Assembly: GCA_963734575.1 (NCBI GenBank)
Contig: CAVTHT010000007.1
Coordinates: 160,549 to 224,548 of the forward strand
DNA from: an uncultured beta proteobacterium
GTDB lineage: Bacteria > Pseudomonadota > Gammaproteobacteria > Burkholderiales > Casimicrobiaceae
Reading direction: 5' to 3'
Length of the DNA stretch: 64,000 bases
The translations under genes were made by a program, and so were the position numbers. The stretch's first letter is position 1, and every line of letters starts with the position of its first letter. The notes under the pieces were generated by a model that was not told the DNA's origin, ran no database searches, and worked only from the letters and a program-made list of their open reading frames with translations. Of the stretch, positions 9,824 to 55,583 are shown piece by piece.

Positions 9824-10057
9824 CCCGCTCCGGCGACCCCGGGGCTAGTGGCGCGGGGGCCGCCGGCAGCACCGCCGCGGTGATCGACGTCGCCGCGCCG
9901 GCGGCGGAGCCGACCGCACCGTCCGCGGCAGGAGCGCCCGGAAGCCGACGCCAGCACGACGGCCGCCGCGAGCGCCGCAGCCGCGGCCGCCGTCGAGGCG
10001 GTTGCCGCATCCGTTCCGCGGCGCGCGTCGGCGCAGGCTGCGCGGATCGCGACGATC

Positions 10058-11051: not shown

Positions 11052-11969
11052 GTGACGTGCCCGGCGAGGGCGTTGGCGCGGTACCGCGCGACTGCTCGGC
11101 CGCGCATGCCGGCGCTGGATCGAGGACGGCGCGAGCCGGCAGGGCGCGGCCATCGCGTTCTACGCCACGCTGAGCCTTGCGCCCTTCCTGCTGGTCCTCG
11201 CCGCCGTCGCGGCATTCTTCCTCGGTCCGGAAGCAGCGCGCGGCTACATCGTCGATCAGAGCGGCGCCCTCGTCGGCACCGAGGGCGGTGCTCTGCTCAA
11301 GGGGATGCTCGGCGCGGGCGGCTCGGCGCAGGCGAAGGGCTGGGCGGCCGCCATCGGGCTCGTGAGCACGCTTGCGGGCGCCACGGCCGGATTCGCGGAG
11401 CTGCAGACCACGCTCAATCGCGTGTTCCGCATTCCGGAGCGCCGGGGCATGCGCGCGACGCCTCACGTCGCGGCTGTGGTCGCTGCTGCTGGTGGTCGGC
11501 GTCGGCGTGCTCCTGGTCGCTTCCCTCGCCGTGACCGCGTTCGTGAGTCGCAGCCTCGACTGGTTCGAGGGACCGGCGCGCGTCACCAAATGGGCGACGC
11601 TGGCGGCCAACGAAGGCATCACTCTCGGCATCGCGACGGTGCTCTTCGGTCTCGTGCTCAAGGTGCTGCCCGATCGCGCGCGTGCCTTGGCGGCTGGCGA
11701 TCGGCGGCGGGTTCCTGACCGCGGTCCTGTTCCAGATCGCGAAGTTCGCGATCGGGTGGTACATCGGCCGCGCGACGCCGGGGGCTGCGTATGGCACCGC
11801 GGCGGCGCTGGTCGTGCTGATGCTGTGGATCTACTTTTCGGCGCAGGTCTTCCTGCTCGGCGCCGAATTCACGGCGGTGTCACTCGAGGCGCAGGAGGAC
11901 GCGACACGCATCGCGGCCCAGGCGCCGACGGCGGACGAACCCGACGCGCGCTGGACGACGACGCAATGA
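11052..11969 (+). pseudogene. YihY/BrkB family membrane protein split over at least 3-4 frames.
   Basis: Fragments GRWRGTARLLGRACRRWIEDGASRQGAAIAFYATLSLAPFLLVLAAV..RVFRIPERRG, then RLWSLLLVVGVGVLLVASLAV..VLKVLPDR, then VPWRLAIGGGFLTAVLFQIAKFAIGWYIGRATPGAAYGTAAALVVLMLWIYFSAQVFLLGAEF are each in a different frame. The switches at ~11450 and ~11678 lie in gcgcgcg runs. Confidence 0.5.
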
Positions 11970-12015
11970 AAAGGGGCGCGAACCGCGCCCCTTGCCGTGG
12001 CAATGCGTGGCCGCG

Positions 12016-12463
12016 TTACATCCGGAACACGCGGTTGCCTTCGATCCGCACGCGATCGCCCACACGCAGGTTGAGATCGTTGGAATTGTCGAGCTGCATG
12101 AGCGAGCCGGAGTCGGTGCGCACCGTGATGCGATAGCGGCTGCCTTCGACGCGATTCTGCTTCTCCACCTCGTTGCCGACCACCGCGCCGCCCACTGCGC
12201 CGGCGATGGTCGCCGCCGTGTTGCCGCTTCCGCTGCCGAACTGGTGGCCGATCACGCCGCCGGCAATGCCGCCGAGCAGCGCGCCCACGCCGACCGGGCC
12301 GGAGCCGTCACTGCGGAAGATGTCGATGTTCTCGACGACGCCGTACTGCACGCGCGGGGCGACGGTCGTCGTCGGGCCGTAGTAGCGGGTACGGCGCGCA
12401 GGCGCCGAGAACCAGGGCGCTGCCAAGCAGCGCGGCCGGAAGGAGATGTCGACGTAGGCTCAT
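12016..12463 (-). CDS. Glycine-zipper (SlyB/17-kDa-antigen-like) outer-membrane lipoprotein with a frameshift at ~12400.
   Basis: The signal peptide MSLRRHLLPAALLGSALVLGAC-A (lipobox) is in one frame. The mature part RRTRYYGP..GALLGGIAGGVIGHQFGSGSGNTAATIAGAVGGAVVGNEV.. is in the next frame, with the switch inside 'tgcgcgccg'. The ATG overlaps the upstream stop (ATGA). Confidence 0.6.
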
Positions 12464-33927: not shown

Positions 33928-34648
33928 ATGGATGGCAAGGTGCTTTCGTTCGGCGAACGAGGCGCGGCCCTGACCAAGGATCGCATCCTCGATGCGGCCG
34001 AAGCCATGTTCATGGCCCAAGGTTTCGAGGGCACGTCGCTGCGCGAGCTGACGACCGCGGCGAGCGTCAACCTCGCCGCGGTCAACTACCACTTCGGCTC
34101 GAAGGAAGAGCTCTTCGAGGCCGTGCTGCGTCGCCGCCTCGACCCGATGAACCAGGCCCGGGTCGAGCTGCTGCGCCAGTTCGAGGCCGAGTCCGCGCCC
34201 GGCGCCCGTGTCATGCGAGAAGATCCTGACCGCGCTCTTCATCCCCGCGTTGCACCTTGCGCGCGACCCGCTGCGCGGTGGCAGCAACTTCCTGCGCCTC
34301 CTCGGTCGCGCCTACGCCGACCCGGCGCCCTTCATCCGCCAGTTCCTGTCCGACCAGTACGCGACGATGATCGCGCGGTTCAAGGCGGCGTTCGGCCGGG
34401 CTCTGCCCGCGCTGCCGCCGCGCGAGCTGTCGTGGCGGCTGCATTTCATGATGGGTGCGCTTTCCTACACCCTCGCCGGCACCGACGCGCTGCGCATGAT
34501 CGAGGAGCTCGCCCCCGGCGAAGGGGCCAACGACGAGATCCTGCTGCGGCGTCTCGCGCCGTTCCTGCTCGGCGGCCTGACGGCGCCGCTCCCCGAGTTG
34601 TCCGAAGTCACGCGCGCACTCGAGCGCGACGGGCACGCGCGCCCCTGA
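33928..34648 (+). CDS. TetR-family regulator (candidate fatty-acid degradation regulator) with a frameshift at ~34215.
   Basis: TKDRILDAAEAMFMAQGFEGTSLRELTTAASVNLAAVNYHFGSKEELF (HTH) then | KILTALFIPALHLARDPLRGGSNFLRLLGRAYADPAPFIRQF.. in the +1 frame. It lies directly upstream of fadE. Confidence 0.7.
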
Positions 34649-34676
34649 TGCGCGCCTTCACCCAGACGGAGTCCAC

Positions 34677-37199
34677 ATGATCACCGCACTCTGGATCGTT
34701 GTCGTGCTGTCCGGTTGCCTCGCGCTCGCCTATGTGAATGCCTCGGGCCGGCTCTGGACCGCGGCCATCGCGGCCGCCTTGGTCGCCGCATGGGTGACGC
34801 ACGCGCTGCATCCGCTCGTGACCTTGGTCGCGACACTCGCGTTCGTGCTGCTGGCGATCCCGCTGAACGTGCCTACCCTGCGTCGCAGGCTGATCAGCGA
34901 CGGCGTGCTCGGCGCGTTCCGCAAGGTGATGCCCCCCATGTCCGATACGGAGCGCGAGGCGCTCGAGGCTGGCACGGTGTGGTGGGATGGCGAGCTCTTC
35001 TCCGGCCGTCCCGACTGGAAGCGCCTGCTCGAAGTGCCGGTGCCGGCTCTCACGGCGGAGGAGCAGCGTTTCCTGGACGAGGACGTCACCGCCTTGTGCG
35101 ACATGGTGACGGACTGGGAGACGACGAACATCTATCGCGATCTGCCGCCCGAAGTGTGGCAGTTCATCAAGGAACGCGGCTTCCTCGGCATGATCATTCC
35201 CCGCGAGTACGGCGGCCTCGGCTTCTCCGCCTACGCGCAGTCGCAGGTGATCACCAAGCTGTCGACGCGTTCCGGAACCGTGGCCGTGACGGTGCTCGTG
35301 CCCAATTCACTGGGGCCCGGGGAGCTGCTGCTGCATTACGGGACCGAAGCCCAGAAGCGTTACTACCTGCCACGTCTTGCGAAGGGCATCGAGGTGCCGT
35401 GCTTCGCGCTCACCAATCCCAATGCCGGGTCCGATGCAGCGTCCATCCCCGACACCGGGATCGTCACGTGGGGCGAGCACGAGGGCAAGCGGGTGCTCGG
35501 CCTGCGCGTGACGTGGGACAAGCGCTACATCACGCTCGGGCCGGTCGCAACGCTGCTCGGTCTCGCGTTTCGCGTTTACGACCCCGATCATCTTCTCGGG
35601 CAGAAGGACGATCTCGGCATCACCTGCGCGCTCGTCCCGGCGAGCCATCCCGGGGTGGAGATCGGGCGCCGGCACATGCCGCTCAACTGCGTGTTCCAGA
35701 ACGGGCCCAATCGCGGCCAGGACGTGTTCATCCCGATGGACTGGATCATCGGCGGGCAGCCGATGATCGGCCGCGGCTGGCGGATGCTGATGCAGTGCCT
35801 CGCCGCCGGGCGCGGCATCTCGCTGCCGTCGTCGAACACCGGCATGGCCAAGCTCGCCGTGCGCACCACGGGCGCATATGCCCGCGTACGCACGCAGTTC
35901 AAGACCGCCATCGGGCGCTTCGAGGGCATCGAGGAGCCGCTGGCCCGCATGGGCGGCAGTCTCTACATGATGGATGCGACGCGCGTGCTCACCGCGGCGG
36001 CGGTCGATCTGGGCGAGAAGCCGGCCGTGCTCTCGGGCATTGCCAAGCTGCACCTGACCGAGCGCAACCGCGCCATCATCAACGACGCGATGGACATCGT
36101 CGGCGGCAAGGGCATCTGCATGGGGCCATCGAACTTCCTCGGCGCGGCATACATGCAGATGCCGGTGTCGATCACCGTGGAAGGCGCGAACATCCTGACG
36201 CGCAGCCTCATCATCTTCGGGCAGGGTGCGATCCGCTGCCATCCGTACGTGCTGAAGGAGCTCGAGGCCACGCGCGACAGCGATCGCGAGCGCGCCTCGC
36301 TGGCGTTCGACAGCGCGCTCTTCGGGCACATCCGGTTCATGCTCGCGAACATGGCGCGCACGTTCGTCATGGGGCTCACGGGCTCGCATTTCGTGCGCAT
36401 CGATGCCGACGTCGCGCCGGAGACGCGGCGCTACTACCAGCAGCTCACGCGGTTCTCGGCGGCACTCGCGTTCCTCGCCGACGTATCCATGGGCTCGCTC
36501 GGCGGCGCGCTGAAGCGCAAGGAGAAGCTGTCCGCCCGCCTGGGCGACGTGCTGTCCATGCTGTATCTGTGCTCGGCCACGCTGAAGCGCTACGAGCGCG
36601 AAGGGCGGCAAAGCGCGGATGCGCCGCTGATGCACTGGGCGATCTGGGACGCCATGTTCAAGGCGCAGGGCGCGCTGGAGGGCGTGATCTCGAATTTCCC
36701 GCTGCGCGCGGTGGCCGTCCTCATGCGCGTGCTCGTGTTTCCGCTGGGGCGTCCGTATGTCGTCCCCTCGGATCACCTCGGGCACAAGGTGGCGCGGCTG
36801 TTGATCGATCCATCGGCTACGCGCGACCGCCTCACCGCCGGCATGCACATCCCGCGCAACGTGCACGATCCCGTGACGCTGCTCGAGCGCGCGCTCGCCG
36901 CAACCGTCGTGGGCGAGCCGATCGAGGCGAAGATTCGCACCGCCAGCAAGGCGGGACGCATCGATCTTTCATTGCCGGGGGCGAACGATCCGGCCGAGAT
37001 GGCGCGCAGGGCGCATGCGGCCGGGGTGATCGATGCCGGCGAGCTCGAAGCGCTGACGCTCGCCCGCACGCTCACGGCGGAAGTCGTGCGCGTGGACGAC
37101 TTCCCGGCGGATCTGTCCTCCTTCGTGCAGGCGGTCGCGTCCCCGCGCGCGACCGGCGCGGAGGGCAGTGCGGCGCGGGCGCAAAAAGCTGCGGCTTGA
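34677..37199 (+). CDS. fadE: Acyl-CoA dehydrogenase FadE (840 aa).
   Basis: Full-length FadE-type architecture with N-terminal TM helices and an ACAD core (..GFLGMIIPREYGGLGFSAYAQSQV..), intact. Confidence 0.9.
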   Translation: MITALWIVVVLSGCLALAYVNASGRLWTAAIAAALVAAWVTHALHPLVTLVATLAFVLLAIPLNVPTLRRRLISDGVLGAFRKVMPPMSDTEREALEAGTVWWDGELFSGRPDWKRLLEVPVPALTAEEQRFLDEDVTALCDMVTDWETTNIYRDLPPEVWQFIKERGFLGMIIPREYGGLGFSAYAQSQVITKLSTRSGTVAVTVLVPNSLGPGELLLHYGTEAQKRYYLPRLAKGIEVPCFALTNPNAGSDAASIPDTGIVTWGEHEGKRVLGLRVTWDKRYITLGPVATLLGLAFRVYDPDHLLGQKDDLGITCALVPASHPGVEIGRRHMPLNCVFQNGPNRGQDVFIPMDWIIGGQPMIGRGWRMLMQCLAAGRGISLPSSNTGMAKLAVRTTGAYARVRTQFKTAIGRFEGIEEPLARMGGSLYMMDATRVLTAAAVDLGEKPAVLSGIAKLHLTERNRAIINDAMDIVGGKGICMGPSNFLGAAYMQMPVSITVEGANILTRSLIIFGQGAIRCHPYVLKELEATRDSDRERASLAFDSALFGHIRFMLANMARTFVMGLTGSHFVRIDADVAPETRRYYQQLTRFSAALAFLADVSMGSLGGALKRKEKLSARLGDVLSMLYLCSATLKRYEREGRQSADAPLMHWAIWDAMFKAQGALEGVISNFPLRAVAVLMRVLVFPLGRPYVVPSDHLGHKVARLLIDPSATRDRLTAGMHIPRNVHDPVTLLERALAATVVGEPIEAKIRTASKAGRIDLSLPGANDPAEMARRAHAAGVIDAGELEALTLARTLTAEVVRVDDFPADLSSFVQAVASPRATGAEGSAARAQKAAA

Positions 37200-38555: not shown

Positions 38556-38574
38556 CCGCGTGAAGGAACATGTC

Positions 38575-40606
38575 ATGGCAACCATTCCCGCCGAAACTCC
38601 CGCACGCACGTCCACATCGGCCGGACAATCGCTCAGGCCGGCCGAAGCCGGCGCGGCGCCGCTGCGCCACTGGCGCCTCACCCGGGACCCCAGATGGCAT
38701 CGCGCGTCTCGTGCTCGATCGCGCCGAGGCGAGCACCAATACGCTCTCCGGTGCCGTGCTCGCGGAGCTCGATCGCGCGCTCGACGCTCTGCAGCGCGAC
38801 CCCCCCGCCGGCCTCGTCATCGCATCGGGCAAGGCGAACGGCTTCATCGCGGGTGCCGACGTCGACGAGTTCGGCGACGTGCGCTCCGAGGCCGATGCGC
38901 TGGCCCTCGTGCGCCGGGGTTGGGACACGTTCGAGCGCCTCGCAGCGGTGACGTATCCCACCGTCGCACTGGTGCGTGGCTTCTGCCTCGGTGGCGGCCT
39001 CGAGCTCGCGCTGGCGTGCCGCTACCGCGTCGTCGTCGACGAGCCCGCGACACGCCTCGGGCTGCCCGAGGTGATGCTCGGCATCCTTCCGGGCTGGGGT
39101 GGGATCAAGCGCCTGCCGCACCTGACCGGGGCGCCTGCCGCGCTCGATCTGCTGCTCACCGGGAAGACGGTCGATGCTCGCAAGGCACGCAAGCTCGGCA
39201 TCGCCGACGAATGCGTTCCGCCGCGCGTGATGGAGAACGCCGTCCGCGGCCTGTTGCGTGCGCGGCCTCCGGTGCGCAAGCTCAAGTTCCCGCTGTCGCT
39301 GACCTTGCAGCCGTTGGTGCGGCGAATCATCGCCGCCCAGGCGCGCAAGCAGGTGGCGCGTCGCGCGCGGCGCGAGCACTATCCCGCGCCGTACGCGATC
39401 CTCGAGGTCTTCGCGCGCTACGACGGCAACGCGCTCGCCGTGCCGCCTGCGGACGACGCGTCGATCCCGGCATTGCTGCGCTCGCCCACGGCGGCCAATC
39501 TCATCCGGGTCTTTCGCCTGCAGGAGCGCCTGAAGTCGCTCGGCAAGGAAGGCGACTTCACCGCCGCGCACGTGCACGTCGTCGGGGGCGGCACGATGGG
39601 CGGGGATATCGCGGCGTGGTGCGCCCTGCGCGGCATTCGCGTGACGCTGCAGGATCAGGACGCGCAGCGCCTCGCGCCGGCCATGGGCCGCGCAGCGAAG
39701 CTCTTCAAGGAGCGCCTGCGCGATCCGCGGCGCGTGCGCGACGCCATGGATCGACTGATACCCGACGTCGCGGGCGATGGCGTCCGGCGTGCGGACGTGA
39801 TCATCGAGGCGATCTTCGAGAACCTCGAGGCGAAGCGGAGCCTGTTCGCCAGGCTGGAGCGCGAGGCGCGCAGCGATGCCATCCTGGCGACGAACACGTC
39901 GTCGATCCCGCTCGAGAGCATCGCGACCGCGCTCAGCGATCCGGGCCGGCTGCTCGGTCTGCATTTCTTCAATCCCGTTGCGCGCATGATGCTGGTGGAG
40001 ATCGTCGCCGGAGCCTCCACGCGTGCGGACCTCCTGCCGCGCGCGGCCGCGTTCGTGCGCCAGATCGACCGGCTGCCGCTGCCCGTGAAGAGCGCGCCCG
40101 GATTCCTCGTGAATCGCATCCTCGCCCCGTATCTCATGACGGCGATGCGCTGCGTCGACGAAGGCATCGCCCCCGAGACGGTGGACGAGGCCGCGCTGGC
40201 CTTCGGCATGCCGATGGGACCCATCGAGCTCGCGGACACGGTGGGCCTCGACATCTGCGTCGCCGTGGGCAAGATGCTCACGCCCGATGCACAGCCACCA
40301 CGCCGGCTGGCGGAGCTCGTCGCCGGCGGCAAGCTGGGCAAGAAATCGAAAGCGGGGTTCTACGACTGGTCGAGCGGCAAGCCGGCCAAGGCGGCGGCAG
40401 GAACGCCTCCCGCCGGCCTCGCCGATCGCCTGATCCTGCCGTTCGTGAATGAGGCGAAGGCCGCGCTCGCGGAAGGGATCGTGGACGACGCCGATCTCGT
40501 CGACGCCGGCGCGATCTTCGGGACGGGATTCGCACCGTTTCGCGGTGGACCCCTGCACTACGCGCACGAGCAGGGCCTGGCGTCCGCACGCCTCGCTGGC
40601 GCGTGA
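38575..40606 (+). CDS. Fatty-acid oxidation complex alpha subunit (enoyl-CoA hydratase plus 3-hydroxyacyl-CoA dehydrogenase, FadJ/FadB-like) with a frameshift at ~38692.
   Basis: MATIPAETP..HWRLTRDP | DGIARLVLDRAEASTNTLSGAVLAEL..GFIAGADV..GGGLELALAC.. (crotonase) ..HVHVVGGGTMGGDIAAW (NAD-binding). The frames switch at 'gaccccagatgg'. Confidence 0.85.
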
Positions 40607-40784: not shown

Positions 40785-42455
40785 GTGGACAAGATCTGGC
40801 TCAAGCATTACCCGCCCGGCATCCCTGCCGACATCGACATCAACCGCTACGCGTCGGTGCGCGACGTCTTCGACGAGACCGTCACGCGCTTCGCGCCCCG
40901 CCCGGCGTTCACCTGCATGGGCAAGTCGATCACGTTCGCGGATCTCGACGTTCTCTCGCGGGCATTTGCCGCCTACCTGCAGGGCATCGGCTGCGGCAAG
41001 GGCACGCGCGTCGCGCTGATGATGCCCAACATCCTGCAGTACCCCGTCTGCCTGTTCGGCACGCTGCGCGCGGGGTGCACCGTGGTGAACGTCAATCCGC
41101 TCTACACCGCGCGCGAGCTCGAGCACCAGCTCGCCGATTCGGGCGCGGAAGTGATCGTCGTCGTCGAGAACTTCGCCCGCACGCTGCAGGAGATCGTGCG
41201 CCGCACCAAGGTGCGCCACGTGGTGGTGACGAGCATCGGCGAATTGCTCGGCTTCAAGGGCATCATCGTCGATCTCGTGCTGCGCCACGTGAAGAAGATG
41301 ATCCCGGCGTGGTCGCTGCCGCAGGCCGTGCGCCTGTCGACGACCCTCGCGCAAGGCCGCCGGCGCAAGCTCGAGCCGGTGCCGCTCGGGCACGACGACA
41401 TCGCGTTCCTGCAGTACACCGGCGGCACGACGGGCGTCGCCAAGGGGGCGATGCTGCTGCACCGGAACATCATCGCCAACCTGCTGCAGGCCGACGCGTG
41501 GGTCCGGCCGTTCCTCGGCGACGTGCGGCACGTGATCATCACACCGCTGCCGCTCTATCACATCTTCTCGCTGACGGCGAACTGTCTGGTGTTCATGGCG
41601 CTCGGGGGCGAGAACGTGCTGATCACGAATCCGCGCGACATCCCGGGCTTCGTGAAGGAGCTCGCGCGCCATCGCTTCACCGCGATCACCGGCGTCAACA
41701 CCCTGTTCAACGCGCTGCTCAACAATCCCGAGTTCGCGAAGCTCGACTTCTCGTCGCTTAAGCTCGTCCTGGGCGGGGGCATGGCGGTGCAGGAAGCCGT
41801 TGCCGAGCGCTGGAAGGACATCACGGGCGTGCCCCTGATCGAGGCGTACGGACTGACGGAGACCTCGCCGGCGGCAACGATCAATCCGCTCGATCTGCCG
41901 ACGTACAACGGCACCATCGGGCTGCCGATTCCTTCGACCGAGGTCATCCTGCGCGATGACGAGGGGCGCACCGTCGGCATCGGCGAGCCCGGCGAGATCT
42001 GCATTCGCGGCCCACAGGTGATGGCGGGCTACTGGCAGCGCCCCGACGAGACCGCCAAGGTCCTCGACAAGGACGGCTGGTTCGCGACGGGCGACGTCGG
42101 CATCATGGATCCGCAGGGCTACGTGAGGATCGTGGATCGCAAGAAGGACATGATCCTCGTGTCGGGTTTCAATGTTTATCCGAACGAGATCGAGGGCGTC
42201 GTGGCCATGCATCCCGGCGTGCTCGAATGCGCCGCCGTCGGCGTGCCCGACGTGAAGTCCGGCGAGGCGGTGAAGCTCTACGCCGTGAAGCGCGATGCGA
42301 ACGTCACGGTCGAGGACATCCTCGGCCATTGCCGGCGGCATCTCACGGGCTACAAGGTGCCGAGGGAGGTCGAGTTCCGGGCGGAGCTGCCCAAGTCCAA
42401 TGTGGGCAAGATCCTGCGGCGCGAGCTGCGCGACGAAGCGAAAAAGGCGGCCTGA
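40785..42455 (+). CDS. fadD: Long-chain-fatty-acid--CoA ligase FadD.
   Basis: Near-collinear with E. coli FadD (IWLKHYP.., ..[83 protein letters not shown]). The GTG start at 40785 was chosen by alignment; upstream ATGs at 40692 and 40701 are possible. Confidence 0.9.
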
Positions 42456-43122: not shown

Positions 43123-44538
43123 ATGACGCACACCCCGTTTCGTCGCACCCGCCTTGCGCTCGCCCTTGGCGGCGTTGTCATCGCGCTGGGTTCCGGCCAC
43201 GCCTATGGCGGCGGCTTCGCGCTCCAGGAAACGTCCGGCAGCGGCCTCGGCAACGCGTTCGCCGGCGGGGCAGCGGCCGCCGAGGATGCAGGCACCGTGT
43301 GGTCCAATCCGGCAGGCATGTCGCGTATCGGCTCGATGCAGGTCGTGGGTGCATTTCATGTCATCACGCCGTCGTTCGAGTTCAACGACAATGGCTCGCA
43401 GGCTGCAGCGTTCCAGCCGCTGGGGCATACCGGTGGCGACGCGGGGACGGTGAACTTCGTACCCAATGCGTATTTCGTGGCGCCGATCAACCGCCAGCTC
43501 GCCCTGGGGCTGGGTCTGAATGGGCCGTTTGGCCTGGTGACGCATTACGGCGAAGGCTGGCTCGGCCGCTTCCAGGGGATCGAGTCGAACATCAAGACCA
43601 TCAACGTGAATCCGGCGTTGTCGTGGAAGGTGAACGACCGATTCGCCATCGGTATCGGGGCGAGCTACCAGCGCATCGACGCGACGCTGACGAGCCGCGC
43701 CAACTACTCCGCGGCGCTTGCGCAGGCCGCGCAGCAGGCCGCGGCGGGCGGCCTGATCCCTGCTGCTGCCGTGCCGGGCTTCATCGCGGCGACGCCCGGG
43801 CTCGATTCCGGCGTGAAGATCGACGGTGACGACAGCGCATGGGGCTGGAACGTCGGCCTGCTCTTCGACCTCGACCAGAACTCGCGCATCGGCTTGGCTT
43901 ATCGCTCCAAGATCAAGTACAACGTCGTCGGCAACGCGTCGTTCGACCATCCGGCCCTGCCGGCACTGCCGCCCGCGCTCGCGCCGATCGGCGCAGCGCT
44001 GGCTCCCCTCGTCAACGCCACGTTCTTCAACGGTGGCGTGCAGGGCGATCTCGAAGTGCCCGACACCGCGAACATCTCGTACTTTCGCCGGATCAACGAC
44101 AAATGGGACGTGATGGCCGACGCGCAGTGGACCGGCTGGAGCAGCTTCCAGACCCTCAAGTTCGTGCGCACCACGGGTGCGGTCCTCGGCAGCAACCCGG
44201 AAAACTTCGACGATGTGTGGCGGTTCTCGGTCGGGGCCAATTACCACCAGAACGAGCGCCTCATGTTTCGCGGTGGCCTCGCTTACGACCAGGGCCCCGC
44301 CAATGACACCGACCGCACGCCGCGGCTGCCCGACGTGGATCGCGTCTGGTTCTCGATCGGCGCACAGTACGCGGTGACGCCGCAACTGAAGCTCGACGGC
44401 GGTTTCACGTACATCGTCGGCACGAAGAAGGCGAGCATCGACCAGAATGGCGGCAGCACGGCGCAGAACGGCCTGATCAAGGGCAACTACGACGTGAGCG
44501 CGACGATCTTCTCGGTGCAGGCGGCCTACTCGTTCTGA
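43123..44538 (+). CDS. fadL: Outer-membrane long-chain fatty acid transporter FadL (OMPP1/FadL/TodX family).
   Basis: A signal peptide and then NPAGM.. hatch region. The C-terminus ..NYDVSATIFSVQAAYSF is a beta-barrel terminal Phe. It is intact. Confidence 0.9.
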   Translation: MTHTPFRRTRLALALGGVVIALGSGHAYGGGFALQETSGSGLGNAFAGGAAAAEDAGTVWSNPAGMSRIGSMQVVGAFHVITPSFEFNDNGSQAAAFQPLGHTGGDAGTVNFVPNAYFVAPINRQLALGLGLNGPFGLVTHYGEGWLGRFQGIESNIKTINVNPALSWKVNDRFAIGIGASYQRIDATLTSRANYSAALAQAAQQAAAGGLIPAAAVPGFIAATPGLDSGVKIDGDDSAWGWNVGLLFDLDQNSRIGLAYRSKIKYNVVGNASFDHPALPALPPALAPIGAALAPLVNATFFNGGVQGDLEVPDTANISYFRRINDKWDVMADAQWTGWSSFQTLKFVRTTGAVLGSNPENFDDVWRFSVGANYHQNERLMFRGGLAYDQGPANDTDRTPRLPDVDRVWFSIGAQYAVTPQLKLDGGFTYIVGTKKASIDQNGGSTAQNGLIKGNYDVSATIFSVQAAYSF

Positions 44539-44651: not shown

Positions 44652-47048
44652 ATGTCCACGTCTCCATTCCTCGTCCGCCGCGCCGCCGTGCTGGGCGCGG
44701 GTGTGATGGGCGCGCAGATCGCCGCGCACTTCGCCAACGCCGGCATTCCCGTCGTGCTGTTCGATCTCGCCGCGCGCGAGGGCGACCCCAGCGGCATTGC
44801 GCGCCGCGCTCTCGACGGCCTGCGCAAGCTCGAGCCGGCGCCGCTCGCGGCTGCCGACCGCCTCGCTGCGATCGAGCCCGCCAACTACGACCAGCATCTC
44901 GCCAGGCTGCAGGAGTGCGATCTCGTCATCGAAGCGATCGCGGAGCGGATGGACTGGAAGCGCGACCTGTACGCGCGCATCGCGTCGCACGTGGCGCCGC
45001 ACGCGGTGCTCGCGTCGAATACGTCGGGGCTGTCGATCGGCGCACTGGCGGAGGCGCTGCCGCCGGCGTTGCGCGGCCGGTTCTGCGGCGTGCATTTCTT
45101 CAATCCGCCGCGGTACATGCATCTCGTGGAGCTGATCGCGCAACCCGCGTGTGAGCCGGGGCTGCTCGATGCGCTGGAGACGTTCCTCACGTCGATGCTC
45201 GGGAAGGGCGTGGTGCGGGCCAAGGACACGCCCAACTTCATCGCCAATCGCGTCGGCATCTTCTCCGTGCTTGCGACCATGCATTACACGCAGGCGTTCG
45301 GACTCGGCTTCGACGTCGTCGACGCCCTCACCGGACCGGCGATCGGGCGCGCGAAGAGCGCGACGTATCGCACGAGCGACGTCGTCGGCCTCGACACCAT
45401 GGCCCACGTCGTGAAAACCATGCGCGACACGCTGCCGGACGACCCGTGGCACGCGCTCTTCGAGACGCCGGCGGTGCTCGCCAGGCTTGTCGAGCAGGGT
45501 GCGCTGGGGCAGAAGAGCAAGGCCGGCTTCTTCCGCAAGCAGGGCAAGGAGATCCAGGTGCTCGATCCCGCGTCGGGTGCGTATCGCACGGCAGCCGGCG
45601 AGGTCGCGCCCGGGGTGCAGAAGCTCCTCGCGATCGCGGAGCCGCGCGAGCGCTTCGCGGCACTGCGCGCGTCGAGCGAGCCGCAGGCGCAATTCCTGTG
45701 GGCGATCTTCCGCGACCTTTTCCACTATTGCGCGTATCACCTGACCGCCATCGCCCACGACGCACGCGACGTGGATCTCGCGTTGCGGTGGGGCTTCGGC
45801 TGGCAGATGGGGCCGTTCGAGACCTGGCAGTCGGCCGGCTGGGCGGAAGTCGCGGGGTGGATCGACGAAGACATCGCCGGCGGCAAGACCCTGGCTGCGG
45901 TTCCGCTCCCTCGATGGGTGCGTGAAGGACCTGCCGCCGCCGGAGTGCACGCTGCGGACGGGGCGTGGAGCCCGGCGGAGGGCACGTTCGCGCCGCGGTC
46001 GTCGCTGCCCGTATACCGTCGACAGCACTTTCCCGACCCGGTGCTCGCCGAGCGCTGGCCGCGCGGGACCACGATCAGCGAGACCACCGGGGTACGGACC
46101 TGGCACCTCGCCGACGACGTGGCGATCGTGTCGTTCCGGTCGAAGGGGCACACGATCGGCGAGGACGTCCTCGACGGCCTGCTCGACGCCATCGAGCGTG
46201 CCGAGCGCGGCTTTCGCGCGCTCGTCATCTGGCAGCCGCGCGAGCCGTTCTCGGTCGGCGCGAACCTGAAGGCGGTGGCGCCGGACGTGCAGGCGGGCCG
46301 CTGGAGCGCGATCGAAGCGATGGTGGCCAAGTTCCAGCAGACGTCGCAGCGCCTGCGCTACAGCCTCGTGCCGACCGTTGCCGCGGTCCGCGGCATGGCG
46401 CTGGGCGGGTCCTGCGAGTTCATCCTCCATTGCGATCGCACCGTGGCTGCGCTGGAGTCGTACATCGGCCTCGTCGAAGTCGGCGTGGGACTGCTCCCCG
46501 CGGGCGGCGGATGCAAGGAATTCGCGCTGCGCGCCGTGCAGGAATCCGCGCGCGGAGGCAGCGGCGGCCAGATGGACCAGTTTCCGTTCCTGCGCACGTA
46601 TTTCCAGACGATCGCGAAGGCAACGGTCGCCAGGAGCGCGTTGGAAGCGAAGGAGCTCGGCTACCTCCGACCGTCAGACGTCGTGGTTTTCCACCCCCAT
46701 GAGCTGCTGTTCGTCGCCCATGCCCAGGCGAGAGCGCTGGCCGATGCGGCATACCGGCCCCCGTTGCCGATGGCTGCGATACCTGTCGCGGGCAAGACGG
46801 GCATTGCCACGCTCGAGATGGTGCTCGTCAACATGCGCGACGGCGGCTTCATCTCGGCCTACGATTTCGACGTGTCGCTGCGCGTGGCACGCGTCCTGTG
46901 CGGTGGCGAGGTCGAGCCGGGCAGCGTCGTGGACGAGAAGTGGCTGCTCGATCTCGAGCGCGCCGAATTCATGAATCTGGTGCGCAATCCGCGCACGCAG
47001 GAGCGTATCGCGCACACCCTCAAGACAGGCAAGCCGCTGCGCAACTGA
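44652..47048 (+). CDS. Fused 3-hydroxyacyl-CoA dehydrogenase (N-terminal) and enoyl-CoA hydratase (C-terminal), FadN-like, 798 aa.
   Basis: AVLGAGVMGAQIAAHFANAGIPVVLFD (NAD-binding) ..FFNPPRYMHLVEL.. then a crotonase-fold C-half (..FRALVIWQPREPFSVGANLK..), intact. Confidence 0.85.
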   Translation: MSTSPFLVRRAAVLGAGVMGAQIAAHFANAGIPVVLFDLAAREGDPSGIARRALDGLRKLEPAPLAAADRLAAIEPANYDQHLARLQECDLVIEAIAERMDWKRDLYARIASHVAPHAVLASNTSGLSIGALAEALPPALRGRFCGVHFFNPPRYMHLVELIAQPACEPGLLDALETFLTSMLGKGVVRAKDTPNFIANRVGIFSVLATMHYTQAFGLGFDVVDALTGPAIGRAKSATYRTSDVVGLDTMAHVVKTMRDTLPDDPWHALFETPAVLARLVEQGALGQKSKAGFFRKQGKEIQVLDPASGAYRTAAGEVAPGVQKLLAIAEPRERFAALRASSEPQAQFLWAIFRDLFHYCAYHLTAIAHDARDVDLALRWGFGWQMGPFETWQSAGWAEVAGWIDEDIAGGKTLAAVPLPRWVREGPAAAGVHAADGAWSPAEGTFAPRSSLPVYRRQHFPDPVLAERWPRGTTISETTGVRTWHLADDVAIVSFRSKGHTIGEDVLDGLLDAIERAERGFRALVIWQPREPFSVGANLKAVAPDVQAGRWSAIEAMVAKFQQTSQRLRYSLVPTVAAVRGMALGGSCEFILHCDRTVAALESYIGLVEVGVGLLPAGGGCKEFALRAVQESARGGSGGQMDQFPFLRTYFQTIAKATVARSALEAKELGYLRPSDVVVFHPHELLFVAHAQARALADAAYRPPLPMAAIPVAGKTGIATLEMVLVNMRDGGFISAYDFDVSLRVARVLCGGEVEPGSVVDEKWLLDLERAEFMNLVRNPRTQERIAHTLKTGKPLRN

Positions 47049-47134: not shown

Positions 47135-48331
47135 ATGCAACGCCAGATGCAGGATGCATACGTCATCGCCGCCACGCGGACGCCCGTGGGCAAGGCCCCG
47201 CGGGGCGCGTTTCGCCATACCCGGCCGGATTCCATGCTCGCCCACGTGTTGCGCGCGGTGCTGGCGCAGGTGCCGGCCCTGGAGGCCGCGCGCGTGGACG
47301 ACGTGATCGTCGGCTGTGCGATGCCGGAGTTCGAGCAGGGGATGAACGTCGCGCGCATCGGCGTCCTCCTTGCGGGCCTGCCCGACAGCGTGCCCGGCAT
47401 GACCATCAACCGCTTCTGCTCCTCGGGACTCAACGCTGTCTCCATTGCCGCCGATCGCATCCGCACGGGTGAAGCGGACGTGGTGATCGCGGCCGGGACC
47501 GAGAGCATGAGCATGATCCCGATGCTCGGTCGCCTTGCGCTCAATCCGGAAGTCTTCGCCAGGGACGAGAACCTCGGCATCGCCTACGGCATGGGTCTCA
47601 CGGCGGAGAAGGTGGCACAGCGCTGGAACGTCTCGCGCGAGGCGCAGGATGCGTTTGCGCTGGAGAGCCATCGCAAGGCCCTCGCCGCGCAGGCGAGCGG
47701 CGAGTTCGCCGGCGAGATCACGCCGTATCCGCTGCAGGAGGACGTGCCGGATCTCGCGAGCGGTGCCATCACGCATCGCAGCCGTGCGTTCGATCGCGAC
47801 GAGGGTCCGCGTGCGGACACGACCGCAGACGGCCTCGCGAAGCTGCGGCCCGTGTTCGCCGCGCGCGGCAGCGTCACCGCAGGCAACAGCTCGCAAATGT
47901 CCGACGGCGCCGGCGCATCGATCCTCGTGAGCGAACGCGTCGTGCGCGAGCTCGGTCTTGCACCGTTGGCGCGGTGGGTGGGATACGCGGTCGCTGGCGT
48001 GGCGCCCGAGATCATGGGCGTGGGGCCGATTGCCGCCATCCCCAGGCTGCTGCGGCAGACGGGCATCGCGAAGGACGACATCGACTGGATCGAGCTCAAC
48101 GAGGCCTTCGCTGCGCAGAGCCTGGCCGTCATGAACGAGCTGGCGCTCGATCCCGCCAGAGTGAACCCGCTTGGCGGCGCCATCGCACTCGGACATCCGC
48201 TGGGTGCGACGGGCGCCGTGCGCACCGCCACCATCGTGCACGGCTTGCGGCGCAGGAAGCAGAAGTATGGGATGGTCAGCATGTGCGTGGGCACCGGCAT
48301 GGGCGCCGCCGGCCTCTTCGAAGCCGTCTAG
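47135..48331 (+). CDS. fadA: Acetyl-CoA C-acyltransferase (3-ketoacyl-CoA thiolase, FadA-like).
   Basis: ..AYVIAATRTPVGK..NRFCSSGLNAV..GNSSQMSDGAGA..NEAFAAQ..GGAIALGHPLGATGA..CVGTGMGAAGLFE. Confidence 0.9.
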   Translation: MQRQMQDAYVIAATRTPVGKAPRGAFRHTRPDSMLAHVLRAVLAQVPALEAARVDDVIVGCAMPEFEQGMNVARIGVLLAGLPDSVPGMTINRFCSSGLNAVSIAADRIRTGEADVVIAAGTESMSMIPMLGRLALNPEVFARDENLGIAYGMGLTAEKVAQRWNVSREAQDAFALESHRKALAAQASGEFAGEITPYPLQEDVPDLASGAITHRSRAFDRDEGPRADTTADGLAKLRPVFAARGSVTAGNSSQMSDGAGASILVSERVVRELGLAPLARWVGYAVAGVAPEIMGVGPIAAIPRLLRQTGIAKDDIDWIELNEAFAAQSLAVMNELALDPARVNPLGGAIALGHPLGATGAVRTATIVHGLRRRKQKYGMVSMCVGTGMGAAGLFEAV

Positions 48332-48466
48332 CTCGCGAGAACGGAACGCATGCTTCGTTGCTCCTCGCTTTCGTCCTCACGTATCTCCAAGTACGTTCCG
48401 GGCGAAAGCTCCGGTGCGCCTCGCCTGCGTCCCGTTTCGCGGCTATCCGGCGTATATCGCCATGGG

Positions 48467-48526
48467 TCAGGCTTCAGCCTGACATGCGAGCACGACATCG
48501 TCGTGACAGGATTGAGCCTGACATGC
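48467..48526 (+). repeat. Palindrome plus a direct repeat upstream of the chalcone-isomerase-like gene.
   Basis: tcaggct-tc-agcctga palindrome (48467-48482) and two copies of AGCCTGACATGC (48476-48487 and 48515-48526). Confidence 0.3.
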
Positions 48527-48579
48527 AGATGAGATCATCCCCCCATCGAACCGGCGCTCTCGCCCAAGGAGAATCCGTC

Positions 48580-49137
48580 ATGCGCAATGCACTCTTGGCA
48601 GTCATCCTGATGATCGGCACGGGGACGTGCCTCGCTGCCGAGGTCGCGGGCGTGAAGCTCGACGATCGCGCAACCGTCGGCGGGAAGGAGCTCGTGCTGA
48701 ACGGCGCCGGCATCCGCACGCGCGCATTCTTCAAGGTGTACGTGGCGGGTCTGTATCTTCCCGCGAAGGCAACCGACGCCACGACCGCGCTCAACGCGAC
48801 GCCGCGGCGCGTGCAGCTCAACATCATGCGCACGCTGTCGGCGGACCAGCTCGTCGATGCGTTCAACGAGGGCCTCAAGGAAAACAATACCGAGGCGGAG
48901 CTCGCAGCGATCAAGGCGCAGACCGAGCAACTCACGTCGATCATGAAATCGTTCAAGGAAGTACACGACAAGGACGTCGTGACCATGGATTACGTCGACG
49001 GCGGAACGCGCATCGGCCTAAACGGGCAGGCAAAGGAAGCCATTCCCGGCGAGGCCTTCAATCGCGCGCTGCTGAAGGTGTGGCTCGGCGACCACCCCGT
49101 GCAGGCGGACCTGCGCAAGGCGATGCTCGGCGGCTGA
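48580..49137 (+). CDS. Chalcone-isomerase-like (CHI fold) periplasmic protein.
   Basis: aaggag RBS; signal peptide MRNALLAVILMIGTGTCLA; ..FFKVYVAGLYLP..ALLKVWLGDHP is the bacterial CHI-like signature. Confidence 0.8.
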   Translation: MRNALLAVILMIGTGTCLAAEVAGVKLDDRATVGGKELVLNGAGIRTRAFFKVYVAGLYLPAKATDATTALNATPRRVQLNIMRTLSADQLVDAFNEGLKENNTEAELAAIKAQTEQLTSIMKSFKEVHDKDVVTMDYVDGGTRIGLNGQAKEAIPGEAFNRALLKVWLGDHPVQADLRKAMLGG

Positions 49138-49165
49138 CGCCGCCGCATCGACCGCGCACGCCAGC

Positions 49166-50186
49166 GATGGGACAGCACGACTTCTGGGCCTCGTCGAACT
49201 ATCGACTTCTCGCACCGACATCGGACGGTCGGCTTCGCTTGACGGACGCGTTCCTGCGGGCATCGCTGCTGCGCCCGGAGCTCGCGCCGGTGCCGACCTC
49301 CTCCGCCGCGGAGCTCGCGCTGCACGAGGCGCTGCTCGCGAACCCGCGCCAGGCCGTCCCTGCCGCCGCACTCGGTGATCTCGGGGACGAGGACGTCGAG
49401 CACAACTACGGCGTGTGGCTGCGCTTTCGCGATCGCCTTCTCGCCGCGCCGTCGATCGAGGCCGCGTACATCGCGCTTTTCCGCGACGGCGTGGACGTGC
49501 CTCCGGTATTCGTGCATCAGCTCACCCAGATCCTGCTGCGGCACATCCTGCGCGACGTCGACGACGCGCTCGAGGTGCGTGCGGCGGAGATGCTCTACCG
49601 GCCGCAGAAGATCGCGGTGCTGGAGGACGGCGCCGTCATGGCCGCCGACGCCGAGGTCGTGGAGACGCACGCCACGACCGGAGGCTTCGGCAGCCTCGGC
49701 GAGCTGCTGCAGCGCAATCGCATTCCGACCCGCACGGTCGATCTCGACGTGCTGGGCGAGGAGAATGCCGCGGACTACTGGTCGCGCGACGAGCGTTTCG
49801 ACCTTGCCATCAGCCTGAATCGGGGTGGGCCCGCGCTCAGAGCCCTGTGTCGCGTGCTCGAGCGCTGGATTGCGCACTTCCTGGGCGTTCCGGTGTCCAT
49901 CAAGCCGCAGCGCGAGATCGACGACAGCCGCTGGGTCTGGCACGTGGGCCTCGATGCCCAGGCGAGCGCGCTCCTCAACGACATCTACAATCGCGTGGAG
50001 GTGGACGAGGAGCGCAGCCGCCGGCTGCTGTGCCTGTTCGAGCTGCGCTTCGAGAATCCGGCGGACATGCGACCCGCCATCGCCGGACGGCCCGTGTACC
50101 TGGCGATGGCCATCGACGAGCGCCAGCTGTTGCGGCTGAAACCGCAGAACCTTCTCCTGAATCTTCCCCTGGCAACGACACAATGA
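49166..50186 (+). CDS. Conserved hypothetical protein (DUF6352-like), 340 aa.
   Basis: A long intact ORF; its stop overlaps the next start (ATGA). Confidence 0.55.
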
Positions 50187-50828
50187 ATCGCATCCCTGCT
50201 TTCGCCGCGCGCACGCGCGCTGTCGGGCGTCGCTGCGGCCATCGCCGCACTGGGCCTGACGATGACGGCGGCCACGGTCGTGGCGCAGACGCCCGCCGCT
50301 CCGGCCGCGCCGACCACGGATACTGCCGCGCCCAGGCCGGCCGCGGGAACCGCCGCCGCCGATGCCGCGGGCAAGCCCACCGAAACGCCACCAACGCTCG
50401 CGTCGATGCAATGGCTGGAGGGTTGCTGGCAGGGCAGCGTGAACAAGCGCGACTTTCGCGAGGTGTGGCTGCCCCAGCGCGGCGGCATGATGATCGGCGT
50501 CAGCCAGACGGTGATGGCCGACAAGACCCTCGACTACGAGTACCTGCGCCTCGAGCCGCGCGGCGACGCCGTGTACTACGTCGTCTCGCCGCCGAACAAG
50601 CCCGAGGAGGCGTTCAAGCTCACCTCCGAGCTCGTCGACAAGGAAGACGCGCACACCTTCGTGTTCCTCGATCCTGCGCGCGACTTCCCGCAACGGATCG
50701 GATACCGGCGGGCGAGCGAGGGCTGGCTCTACACCGAAGTCGAAGGCAAGGTGAAGGGCGCCGACCGCAAGGTGATCTATCCGATGCGGCGCGTGGACTG
50801 CGCGACGGGCGAATTCATCCGCAAGTGA
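50183..50828 (+). CDS. Secreted conserved hypothetical protein (DUF6265-like) with a frameshift at ~50215.
   Basis: MNRIPAFAARTRA | LSGVAAAIAALGLTMTAATVVAQTPAAP.. (signal peptide in the next frame) ..MQWLEGCWQGSV..YYVVSPPNKPEEAFKLTSEL. The switch lies inside 'gcgcgcacgcgcgc'. Confidence 0.55.
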
Positions 50829-51188
50829 CGACCGTGACCGACGTCGCGCCCTCGGCAGCACTGCAGAACTTCCGGCGCATGCTGGAGGCGGGCAAGGACG
50901 GAGCGCTCCTGCGCTTCGCGCTCGGCAACGAGCTGTTGAAGGCCGGGGACGCCGCCGAAGCGGTCGGAGCATCTTGCGCGCGCGGTGGAGCTCGATCCGC
51001 GCTACACCGCGGCATGGAAGATCTACGGCAAGGCGCTGGCCGCGGCGGGTCGCAGCGACGATGCGCTGGCCGCCTACCGGCAGGGCATCAGCGTGGCCGA
51101 TGCGAAGGGCGACAAGCAGGCGGGGAAGGAGATGCGCGTGTTCGCGCGTCGCATCGAAAGCAGTCGAGCAGGAGGCGACGCCGTTTAG
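50825..51188 (+). CDS. Small TPR-repeat protein with a frameshift at ~50960.
   Basis: ..LLRFALGNELLKAGDAAEAV | ..LDPRYTAAWKIYGKALAAAGRSDDALAAYRQGISVADAKGD are TPR-like helices. The GTG overlaps the upstream stop. Confidence 0.4.
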
Positions 51189-51208
51189 CGTGCCTGCGCA
51201 GGTGCCCG

Positions 51209-51661
51209 TCAGGGCGCCGCGCGTCCCGGGAGCGTGCCGACGCCGCGATTGGCGAGCGCGTCGGCGCGCGTGTTGCCGGGATGATCGTTGTGGCCGCGCA
51301 CCCAGTGCCAGCGGATCTCGTGCCGCGCGGCGAGTTCGTCGAGTTCGCGCCAGAGCTCGGCATTCTTCACGGGCTTGCGGTCCGCGGTCTTCCATCCGTT
51401 GCGCTTCCAGCCATGGATCCACTGCTGGATGCCGTTCTTCACGTACTGCGAATCGGTGTAGAGCTCGACCGTGCAGGACCGCTTGAGCGACTCCAGGGCG
51501 CGGATCACCGCGGTGAGCTCCATGCGGTTGTTGGTGGTGTGTCCCTCGCCACCGAAGAGCTCGCGCTCGTGGTCGCCCCAGACGAGCAGGGCGCCCCAGC
51601 CGCCGGGCCCGGGGTTTCCCTTGCACGCGCCGTCGGTATAGATCTCGACCGTGCCGCTCAT
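51209..51661 (-). CDS. rnhA: Ribonuclease HI.
   Basis: [68 protein letters not shown]; 150 aa, intact. Confidence 0.9.
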
Positions 51662-55105: not shown

Positions 55106-55141
55106 CGTCGGCTGCCCCGAAGAGCGAGCCGGCGTCCGCGA

Positions 55142-55583
55142 TTACTTGCGGCTTGCGGACTTCCGGGCGCCGCCGCGTTTTTTCGCGGCAGACTTCTTGG
55201 CGCCGCCGCGCTTCTTCGCTGCGGACTTCTTCGCACCGCCGCGCTTCTTCGCTGCGGACTTCTTCGCGCCACCGCGCTTCTTCGCGGCCGACTTCTTGGC
55301 GCCGCCGCGCTTCTTCGCCGCCGACTTCTTGGCGCCGCCGCGCTTCTTCGCTGCGGACTTCTTCGCGCCGCCGCGCTTCGCGGCCGTCTTCCGCGCGCCG
55401 CCGCGCTTCGTGGCGGACTTCTTGGCGCCGCGTGCGCTTCTTCGCGGCCGACTTCTTGGCGCCGCCGCGCTTCTTCGCTGCGGTCTTCTTCCCAGCGGAC
55501 TTCTTCCCCGCGGAGCGCTTCTTCGCGGGAGCCTTCGCCGGGGCCGCAGCCGTCGGCGTCATCATCGACATCATGTCAGCCAT
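55142..55583 (-). CDS. Histone H1-like/AlgP-like Lys/Ala-repeat protein encoded by 33-bp tandem repeats. Frameshift at ~55430.
   Basis: aggaga RBS; MADMMSMMTPTAAAPAKAPAKKRSAGKKSAGKKTAAKKRGGAKKSAAKKR.. then, after one irregular 34-bp repeat unit, (GGAKKSAAKKR)xN ..GGARKSASRK* ending at a TAA (55142-55144). Confidence 0.6.
55160..55530. repeat. Tandem 33-bp coding repeat (about 10 units, gccgccgcgcttcttcgc(t/g)gc(g/c)gacttctt).
   Basis: cttctt hexamers recur at alternating 15- and 18-nt offsets from 55193 to 55518. The only break is a 19-nt step at 55418 to 55437. Confidence 0.8.

Follow-up and report, generated by a model that had tools for sequence, protein, structure and literature searches.

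Background

What are four genes doing at the tail of a beta-oxidation cluster in a soil betaproteobacterium? The question is raised by a 64-kb stretch of DNA (contig CAVTHT010000007.1, positions 160,549 to 224,548), and we call the whole of this stretch the window. The four genes encode, in order, an exported protein with the chalcone isomerase (CHI) fold, a cytoplasmic DUF6352 protein, an exported DUF6265 protein and a small TPR protein. An initial annotation of the window read them as a single operon appended to the fatty-acid degradation (fad) genes and proposed that the first product is a periplasmic fatty-acid chaperone linking FadL to FadD. It also stated that none of the four has an assigned function. 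This is borne out: NCBIfam has no family for the first, second or third gene, and the literature that we searched holds no mention of DUF6352 or DUF6265.

Our answer separates the first gene from the others. Again and again, though not universally, the CHI-like gene is found linked to fad genes, and this link does not depend on the three genes that follow it. Its sequence makes a role as a periplasmic fatty-acid carrier plausible; which ligand it carries, which way the transfer runs and whether FadL or FadD is touched are what we infer from there. We read the region as two adjacent modules, the CHI-like gene, which tracks the fad genes, and the DUF6352-DUF6265 pair with or without the TPR gene. 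Taken jointly with the carrier mechanism and with the treatment of two broken reading frames as artefacts, this account is put forward tentatively, as a possible one that we stop short of calling probable. All four genes fall into established Pfam families as ordinary members, and the locus is not structurally exotic. What is new is the repeated placing of an exported protein of the fatty-acid-binding protein (FAP) type in fad clusters, and a DUF6352 family without a solved structural relative.

The CHI-like protein is nearest to the plant FAPs

The first product matches Chalcone_3 (PF16036) over profile positions 1-165 of 165 (E 5e-53, 179.9 bits against a cut-off of 27), and its signal peptide appears cleavable by signal peptidase I. 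The initial description of a signal peptide followed by a bacterial CHI-like signature was right, and the motifs quoted for it are present. The family is large, about 4,458 clusters at 50% identity, nearly all of them stand-alone proteins of about 190 residues. Single-sequence searches of the first three products against solved structures returned nothing significant; only a profile of the CHI-like family, built from 101 diverse bacterial homologues, gave matches. The best of these are the plant FAPs, FAPb (At1g53520, 4DOL) at E 2e-15 and AtFAP1 (4DOO) at 1e-8. Reconstructed non-catalytic CHI ancestors match at about 1e-11 and the fungal protein Aim18p at 2e-4, while true chalcone isomerases reach only E of about 0.1, over the C-terminal 37 residues. 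By this profile comparison the protein is nearer to the FAPs than to the catalytic chalcone isomerases. That short, weak match and the fad neighbours do not fit a catalytic chalcone isomerase.

The likeness to the plant proteins extends to the size of the domain and to one arginine. The domain has about 165 residues in both, and both have the GxR carboxylate arginine followed by an invariant tyrosine. In the bacterial family the arginine is R46, part of the motif LNGAGxR. At least 90% of the sequences keep it, and its counterpart in the 4DOL alignment is the GFR motif. It is nearly invariant; Y54 and Y59 are fully so. No histidine, cysteine or methionine is invariant in the family. The FAP arginine coordinates the fatty-acid carboxylate (bioRxiv 10.1101/174128). 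The link to plant FAPs suggested by the initial annotation therefore holds at the level of sequence. The setting is a different one, however. Plant FAPs are plastidial and tied to fatty-acid synthesis, whereas our protein is bacterial, predicted to be periplasmic, and encoded beside catabolic fad genes.

In the mechanism that we propose, the CHI-like protein would collect what FadL lets in across the outer membrane, namely long-chain fatty acids or some lipophilic carboxylate of a similar kind. Arg46 and Tyr54 would hold the carboxylate, the acyl chain would be buried in the cleft between sheet and helices, and the fatty acid would be passed to the inner membrane for activation by FadD. A known system to compare is the FadL-FadD import of Escherichia coli; homologues of both proteins and of the beta-oxidation enzymes are also encoded in the cluster of the window. 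We know of no dedicated periplasmic carrier in E. coli fatty-acid import. LolA and MlaC are comparisons for the manner of working only: they have no homology to the CHI-like protein, their cargo is lipoproteins or phospholipids, and their membrane partners are known. A fuller version of the proposal gives this group of bacteria a dedicated periplasmic leg of fatty-acid import, in which the CHI-like protein, possibly with the DUF6265 barrel, would take over long-chain fatty acids at FadL and deliver them to FadD at the inner membrane, and the DUF6352 protein would be a cytoplasmic partner. We regard that version as rather unlikely.

One source labels many stand-alone CHI-like proteins of 185 residues "long-chain acyl-CoA synthetase" (P0001, P0014, P0017 and others). 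A fusion of a CHI domain to an acyl-CoA synthetase, a possible origin of this JGI name, does not show up among the 150 best cluster representatives, nearly all of which are stand-alone proteins of about 190 residues. The longer ones among them carry Chalcone_3 alone, except for one fusion to a ZIP transporter that is probably a merger of gene calls. The name looks like an annotation error, because no AMP-binding domain or fusion was found; a ligase gene next door, like that at locus L167, may be where it came from.

The CHI-like gene among the fad genes

Two scans bear on where this gene is found. A genome scan with a DUF6352 alignment gave 80 species-level loci at 65-75% identity, and genes were mapped in them by tblastn; 77 of these loci have upstream sequence and 72 have downstream sequence, and these two numbers are the bases for the counts that follow. 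The CHI-like gene is present in 70 of the 77, with fadA directly before it in 52 and fadL in 18. In the seven loci that lack it, the DUF6352 gene directly follows fadL (four) or fadA (two), and one has no detected upstream fad gene. The second scan, of metagenomes, was seeded by the CHI motif alone and also gave 80 loci; in 53 of them the sequence reaches 700 nt or more upstream. The same-strand gene directly upstream is fadA in 24, fadL in 12, an acyl-CoA ligase in one and something else in 16, so that 37 of the 53 CHI-like genes are directly preceded by fadA, fadL or an acyl-CoA ligase. The single ligase case is L167, where only 7 nt separate the end of a gene for a long-chain acyl-CoA ligase from the CHI-like gene. 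Single-linkage clustering of CHI sequences at 60% identity joined nearly all of them. Tandem CHI-like paralogues occur at L120 (1334-2493), where the pair directly follows fadL, and at L127 (20-1200); they are about 60% and about 50% identical to the protein of the window.

A second, deeper clade shows the fadA-CHI arrangement with different company. Its eight metagenome loci have a GC content of 53-56%, a CHI-like protein 42-51% identical to ours and a fadA product 66-68% identical. Where the flank suffices the order is fadA, the CHI-like gene, and a gene for a protein of 404-414 residues that has no match in Pfam or NCBIfam. DUF6352, DUF6265 and TPR genes are all absent nearby. The 404-414-residue gene is not a divergent DUF6352 gene, for which hmmsearch found no match. 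This gene is conserved and the CHI-like gene overlaps it (L119 10497-11741, L158 10507-11718, L152, L153, L165 and L123, with partial cases at L141 and L143); to the eye its product looks ATP-grasp-like.

The DUF6352 protein and the DUF6265 barrel

The second product matches DUF6352 (PF19879) at E 4e-66 (224 bits, cut-off 25) and has no signal peptide, in agreement with the initial call of a DUF6352-like cytoplasmic protein. Its AlphaFold2 model is confident (predicted local distance difference test score, pLDDT, 87; predicted template-modelling score, pTM, 0.86) and finds no solved structural relative. The family has a second home. Alphaproteobacterial members, 38-40% identical over their full length, lie on megaplasmids of Sinorhizobium, Bradyrhizobium and Microvirga; the S. 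meliloti member aligns to ours with an hhalign probability of 100, and a Methylobacterium record also matches. They are full-length family members like the protein of the window, but their neighbours are formate-dehydrogenase accessory genes and not fad genes. On one flank are a BPL/LplA-family gene and DUF6505, on the other DUF3305, DUF3306, a gene for a TorD-family chaperone and periplasmic formate-dehydrogenase genes. The same run, from BPL/LplA through DUF6505, DUF6352, DUF3305 and DUF3306 to TorD, is conserved before the formate-dehydrogenase genes at L083 (6719-11043), L084 and L085, all on alphaproteobacterial megaplasmids, and a large 4Fe-4S protein is encoded divergently from it. The run has the look of a module for accessory or maturation functions. 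An earlier description places DUF3305 and DUF3306 upstream of dmsD-fdhGHI operons (PMC4464133). The two contexts do not mix: none of the alphaproteobacterial partner genes lies near the beta-type DUF6352 gene in at least 160 loci, and no fad, CHI or DUF6265 gene lies near the alpha-type clusters. Homology of DUF6265 to DUF3305 or DUF6505 finds no support, with an hhalign probability of 0.2.

The third product was called a secreted DUF6265-like protein. It matches DUF6265 (PF19780) at E 1.5e-17 (64.5 bits, cut-off 23.8), and every intact orthologue, of 186-220 residues, carries a signal peptide, so the call stands. The model of its domain (pLDDT 94) is a helix with a ten-stranded barrel of nitrobindin topology, and its structural comparison values are about 10 to the fatty-acid-binding protein (FABP) barrels and 9-10 to phycobilin lyases. 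Sequence identity to nitrobindin, Rv2717c and Rv0813, to the FABP barrels and to the OlmO spirocyclase is only 6-17%. Among 64 homologues two cysteines are invariant, a pair that fits a periplasmic disulfide. R20, E24, W26, R53, E55, R57 and Y105 are invariant as well, Y51 and R107 are nearly so, and these residues take alternating strand positions. FABPs and other calycin fatty-acid binders have an internal Arg/Tyr site for the carboxylate; the Arg/Glu/Tyr/Trp face of DUF6265 may line the barrel cavity, and the barrel probably binds a small hydrophobic anion. Nitrobindins ligate haem iron with a proximal histidine. The barrel topology is common to both, but that conserved histidine is not found in DUF6265: in the alignment of the 64 homologues no invariant or nearly invariant position is a histidine. 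Unlike nitrobindin-type barrels, the DUF6265 protein is exported and has a conserved disulfide pair, an Ala/Pro-rich linker and the conserved face just described.

At L002 the signal peptide of the DUF6265 protein (11568-12161) ends in a lipobox-like MVAC motif. Some species may thus have the barrel not as a soluble protein but as a lipoprotein, tethered to the membrane through an Ala/Pro-rich linker. DUF6265 had no match on plasmids. It is a clade-specific partner of DUF6352, because it has 682 homologues against at least 6,685 for DUF6352.

Fatty acids or haem

Several observations weigh against a fatty-acid carrier, and they should be set out together. Unrelated neighbours surround roughly one in three of the CHI-like genes sampled, and every one of the four plasmid cases: a UxaA-like (sugar-acid) dehydratase, PFK, GntR, MFS, AraC, a CDF transporter and MauE/DoxX. 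In the Casimicrobiaceae-like clade the whole region is syntenic through rnhA, gloB, mltD, lysA, cyaY and ygjP, and because the entire neighbourhood is syntenic, fad adjacency within the clade is weak evidence for a shared function. The fadA-CHI order common to the two clades may itself be shared by descent. A strong hairpin separates fadA from the CHI-like gene and leaves co-regulation with the fad genes no more than a possibility. The other fad promoters in the window have no copy of the palindrome that precedes the CHI-like gene. Finally, both exported folds, CHI and the ten-stranded barrel, have haem-binding members. The fungal proteins Aim18p and Aim46p (8EW8, 8EW9) are mitochondrial hemoproteins with the CHI fold and without isomerase activity. 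They have four of the five FAP1 pocket residues, yet they bind haem and not fatty acids (PMC9996372).

These points lead to the main rival of our reading, with the one-unit and pseudogene explanations treated below less likely than it. According to this rival the adjacency to fad genes is inherited synteny, the exported proteins carry haem, another tetrapyrrole or some other hydrophobic cofactor, and DUF6352 helps some redox enzyme as an accessory or maturation factor. The first product would be modelled on CHI-fold hemoproteins such as Aim18p and the third on nitrobindin or haemophore barrels. In its favour, a CHI-fold protein can be a hemoprotein despite FAP-like pocket residues, alphaproteobacterial DUF6352 proteins about 40% identical over their full length sit in formate-dehydrogenase clusters, and the whole neighbourhood is syntenic across the clade. 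But the usual axial ligands of haem are missing, because there is no invariant His, Cys or Met in the CHI-like family and no invariant His in the barrel family. Aim18p and Aim46p are membrane-anchored and have a fungal-specific loop, and the CHI-like protein matches them much more weakly than it matches the FAPs. The formate-dehydrogenase partner genes are absent from all of the beta-type loci surveyed. And there is more than one arrangement in which the CHI-like gene comes after fadA, fadL or an acyl-CoA ligase gene. We consider the haem or cofactor explanation somewhat unlikely.

One operon or two modules

A fatty-acid carrier could still belong to a single four-gene unit. The initial annotation took all four genes for one operon; on that model the unit as a whole would pass fatty acids from FadL to FadD. 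The window itself gives this idea its appeal. The four genes share the fad strand, the junctions between them are tight (29 nt at the first, the ATGA overlap at the second, and either a GTGA overlap or 6 nt at the third), and two of the products are exported with ligand-binding folds. In 76 of 77 loci, moreover, a fad gene lies directly before the CHI-like gene or, where that is missing, before the DUF6352 gene. The spacing of 29 nt between the first two genes, as originally given, is correct (49137 to 49167). The overlapping stops and starts from which coupled expression was argued need more care. The ATGA at 50183 is present and is kept in orthologues (the four-base overlap is found in L001 and L002), but its ATG is out of frame with the DUF6265 body, whose reading frame is that of 50187-50828. 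A GTGA overlap is likewise present (50825-50828), but orthologue alignment favours a start of the TPR gene at GTG 50834, 6 nt after the DUF6265 gene, with GTG 50825 as the alternative.

Beyond the window the unit comes apart. In six species (L024, L045, L047, L050, L068 and L080) there are 3.5-5 kb between the CHI-like gene and the DUF6352 gene, a block of three opposite-strand genes that splits the first gene from the second; at L047 (6534-9922) it holds genes for an acyl-CoA dehydrogenase, an APH-family kinase and an SDR protein, all on the opposite strand. We take this trio to resemble the kinase-plus-acyl-CoA dehydrogenase systems of 4-hydroxy-acid or levulinate catabolism. The second clade has fadA and the CHI-like gene without any of the other three. 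The DUF6352 gene stands without the CHI-like gene in seven of 77 loci, the DUF6265 gene is present in 71 of 72, and the TPR gene is found in 50 of 72 and missing in 22. DUF6352 is also at least ten times more widespread than DUF6265, and its relatives of about 40% identity in formate-dehydrogenase accessory clusters have no fad genes nearby. The co-occurrence check suggested with the initial annotation gives a split result: the CHI-like gene does go with fad genes, but the four genes are not a constant set. We find one operon acting as a unit distinctly unlikely.

The two-module reading accommodates these arrangements. The last genes, DUF6352 and DUF6265 with or without TPR, are a translationally coupled unit separate from the CHI-like gene. 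In our proposal this second module would combine the cytoplasmic DUF6352 protein with an exported, disulfide-bonded DUF6265 barrel and, optionally, a small TPR adaptor. It lies next to fad genes only within one syntenic bacterial family.

Broken frames in the last two genes

The four genes are real and under purifying selection, because their GC content at third codon positions (0.81-0.89) is like that of the neighbouring genes and their ratios of nonsynonymous to synonymous substitution (dN/dS) against the closest orthologous locus, L001, are low: 0.128, 0.125, 0.085 and 0.191 in order. For comparison, fadA gives 0.075 and rnhA 0.049. The last two genes are nevertheless broken as sequenced, which the initial annotation overlooked. 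In the DUF6265 gene the signal peptide and the domain come into one frame only if a base is left out somewhere from 50186 to about 50230; the GGG at 50225-50227 is a possible site. The frame of the TPR gene changes at 50966/50967, where there is an extra G relative to the intact orthologue of L001 and the tblastn match is split over two frames. Once repaired, its product matches TPR_2, TPR_16 and related families, as expected from the description of a small TPR protein.

Three further +1 shifts lie in the TetR gene (about 34190), in fadB1 (about 38690) and in a methyltransferase gene on the minus strand (about 52162). This makes five +1 frame breaks within about 18 kb (34-52 kb), all in otherwise conserved genes, and each of the three that can be aligned to L001 is an insertion in the window. 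Single-base insertions this frequent suggest that the source assembly has a systematic indel error, with roughly one event every 4 kb, and they have cut short or split the public gene calls. We conclude that the genes are functional and that the frame breaks of the last two are most likely assembly errors and not gene decay, because there are five such shifts in 18 kb, the orthologues are intact, dN/dS is 0.085-0.19 and the relatives come from long-read sets of metagenome-assembled genomes. That the two genes are true pseudogenes in a decaying module could be argued from their disruption as sequenced and from a public record that calls only a 188-residue remnant of the DUF6265 gene (50262-50828, P0391), but with dN/dS across the breaks of 0.085 and 0.19, a single one-base insertion per gene, three like shifts close by and intact orthologues in about 80 species, this is highly improbable.

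Elements between fadA and the CHI-like gene

The hairpin that separates fadA from the CHI-like gene has a folding energy of -52.1 kcal/mol (z = -4.85), and none of 200 shuffles was as stable. A related element occurs in L001, L002, L009, L011 and L026. Its position is not constant and is sometimes at other intergenic sites; it is at 9881 in L001, and in L002 at 8208 with two tandem copies at 9677-10000, which are a tandem duplication taking in the end of fadA. Rfam gave no match at E up to 1 for 48000-51500, hairpin included. The element is possibly a structured terminator or attenuator, or a dispersed (REP-like) repeat.

Between the hairpin and the gene lie the palindrome and the 12-bp direct repeat that the initial annotation placed in the promoter region, and both are there. 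The palindrome pattern has two matches in the window, both upstream of the CHI-like gene, and two or more matches appeared in three of 100 shuffled windows. It is not a clade-wide operator: L001, the closest relative, is the only one that has retained the palindrome, and the other fad promoters of the window lack it. A consensus scan found no sigma-70-like promoter and no intrinsic terminator. The GGAGAAT of the Shine-Dalgarno site is kept in L001 and L002.

The locus and its surroundings

The features are collected in Table 1. The window has a GC content of 66-71%. Nearest to it are Casimicrobiaceae-like Betaproteobacteria, all uncultured, and long-read sets of metagenome-assembled genomes supplied many of these. 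A long beta-oxidation cluster lies upstream of the CHI-like gene on the same strand as the four genes. Downstream of the TPR gene are rnhA and the methyltransferase gene, convergent on the minus strand, and then gloB, mltD, lysA and cyaY. Also on the minus strand, at about 55118-55583, is a gene for a highly repetitive Lys/Ala/Arg-rich protein with AAKKxxAKK-type repeats. It gives many overlapping tblastn segments in several frames, is orthologous to a 145-residue L001 protein without a Pfam match, and resembles histone H1-like or AlgP-like basic proteins.

Table 1. Features of the fad cluster and of the four genes at its tail, in window coordinates.
Feature	Position	Strand	Remarks
TetR regulator	about 33950-34648	fad strand	cluster member
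fadE-type acyl-CoA dehydrogenase	34581-37199	fad strand	cluster member
thiolase	between fadE and fadB-like gene	fad strand	cluster member
fadB-like gene (fadB1)	38570-40606	fad strand	cluster member
fadD	about 40785-42455	fad strand	cluster member
4HBT thioesterase	between fadD and fadL	fad strand	cluster member
fadL	43123-44538	fad strand	cluster member
second fadB	44652-47048	fad strand	cluster member
fadA	47135-48331	fad strand	cluster member, directly before hairpin and CHI-like gene
extended hairpin, 114 nt	48332..48445	+	directly 3' of fadA stop codon; separates fadA from CHI-like gene
perfect palindrome GTCAGGCT-TC-AGCCTGAC	48466-48483	+	operator-like, upstream of CHI-like gene
imperfect palindrome copy	48505-48522	+	operator-like, upstream of CHI-like gene
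direct repeat, 20 nt, 90% identity, 12-nt exact core	48468 and 48507	+	formed by both operator-like sites (48466..48526)
Shine-Dalgarno AAGGAGA	48567..48573	+	6 nt before ATG of CHI-like gene, read from sequence
exported FAP-type CHI-fold protein, 185 aa	48580..49137	+	PF16036; signal peptide MRNALLAVILMIGTGTCLA|AEV
DUF6352 protein, 339 aa, cytoplasmic	49167..50186	+	PF19879; no signal peptide
exported DUF6265 protein	50183..50828	+	PF19780; ATG overlaps DUF6352 stop (ATGA 50183-50186); frame broken
small cytoplasmic TPR protein, about 117-120 aa	50834..51188	+	TPR match; stop TAG 51186-51188; frame broken

What a carrier would mean

DUF6352 is widespread, has a confident model and occurs in two quite different genomic contexts, which makes it a worthwhile target for structural and functional work. 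The CHI-like protein bears on a more general matter. There is no agreed account of the route by which long-chain fatty acids travel from FadL across the periplasm to the inner membrane, and a soluble carrier encoded with the fad genes would be a concrete candidate for the task. If our reading is true, the CHI-like protein would fill a step of fatty-acid import that has no known protein in the E. coli model, and the carrier role would be the first function for a large bacterial branch of the CHI fold, some 4,500 clusters at 50% identity.

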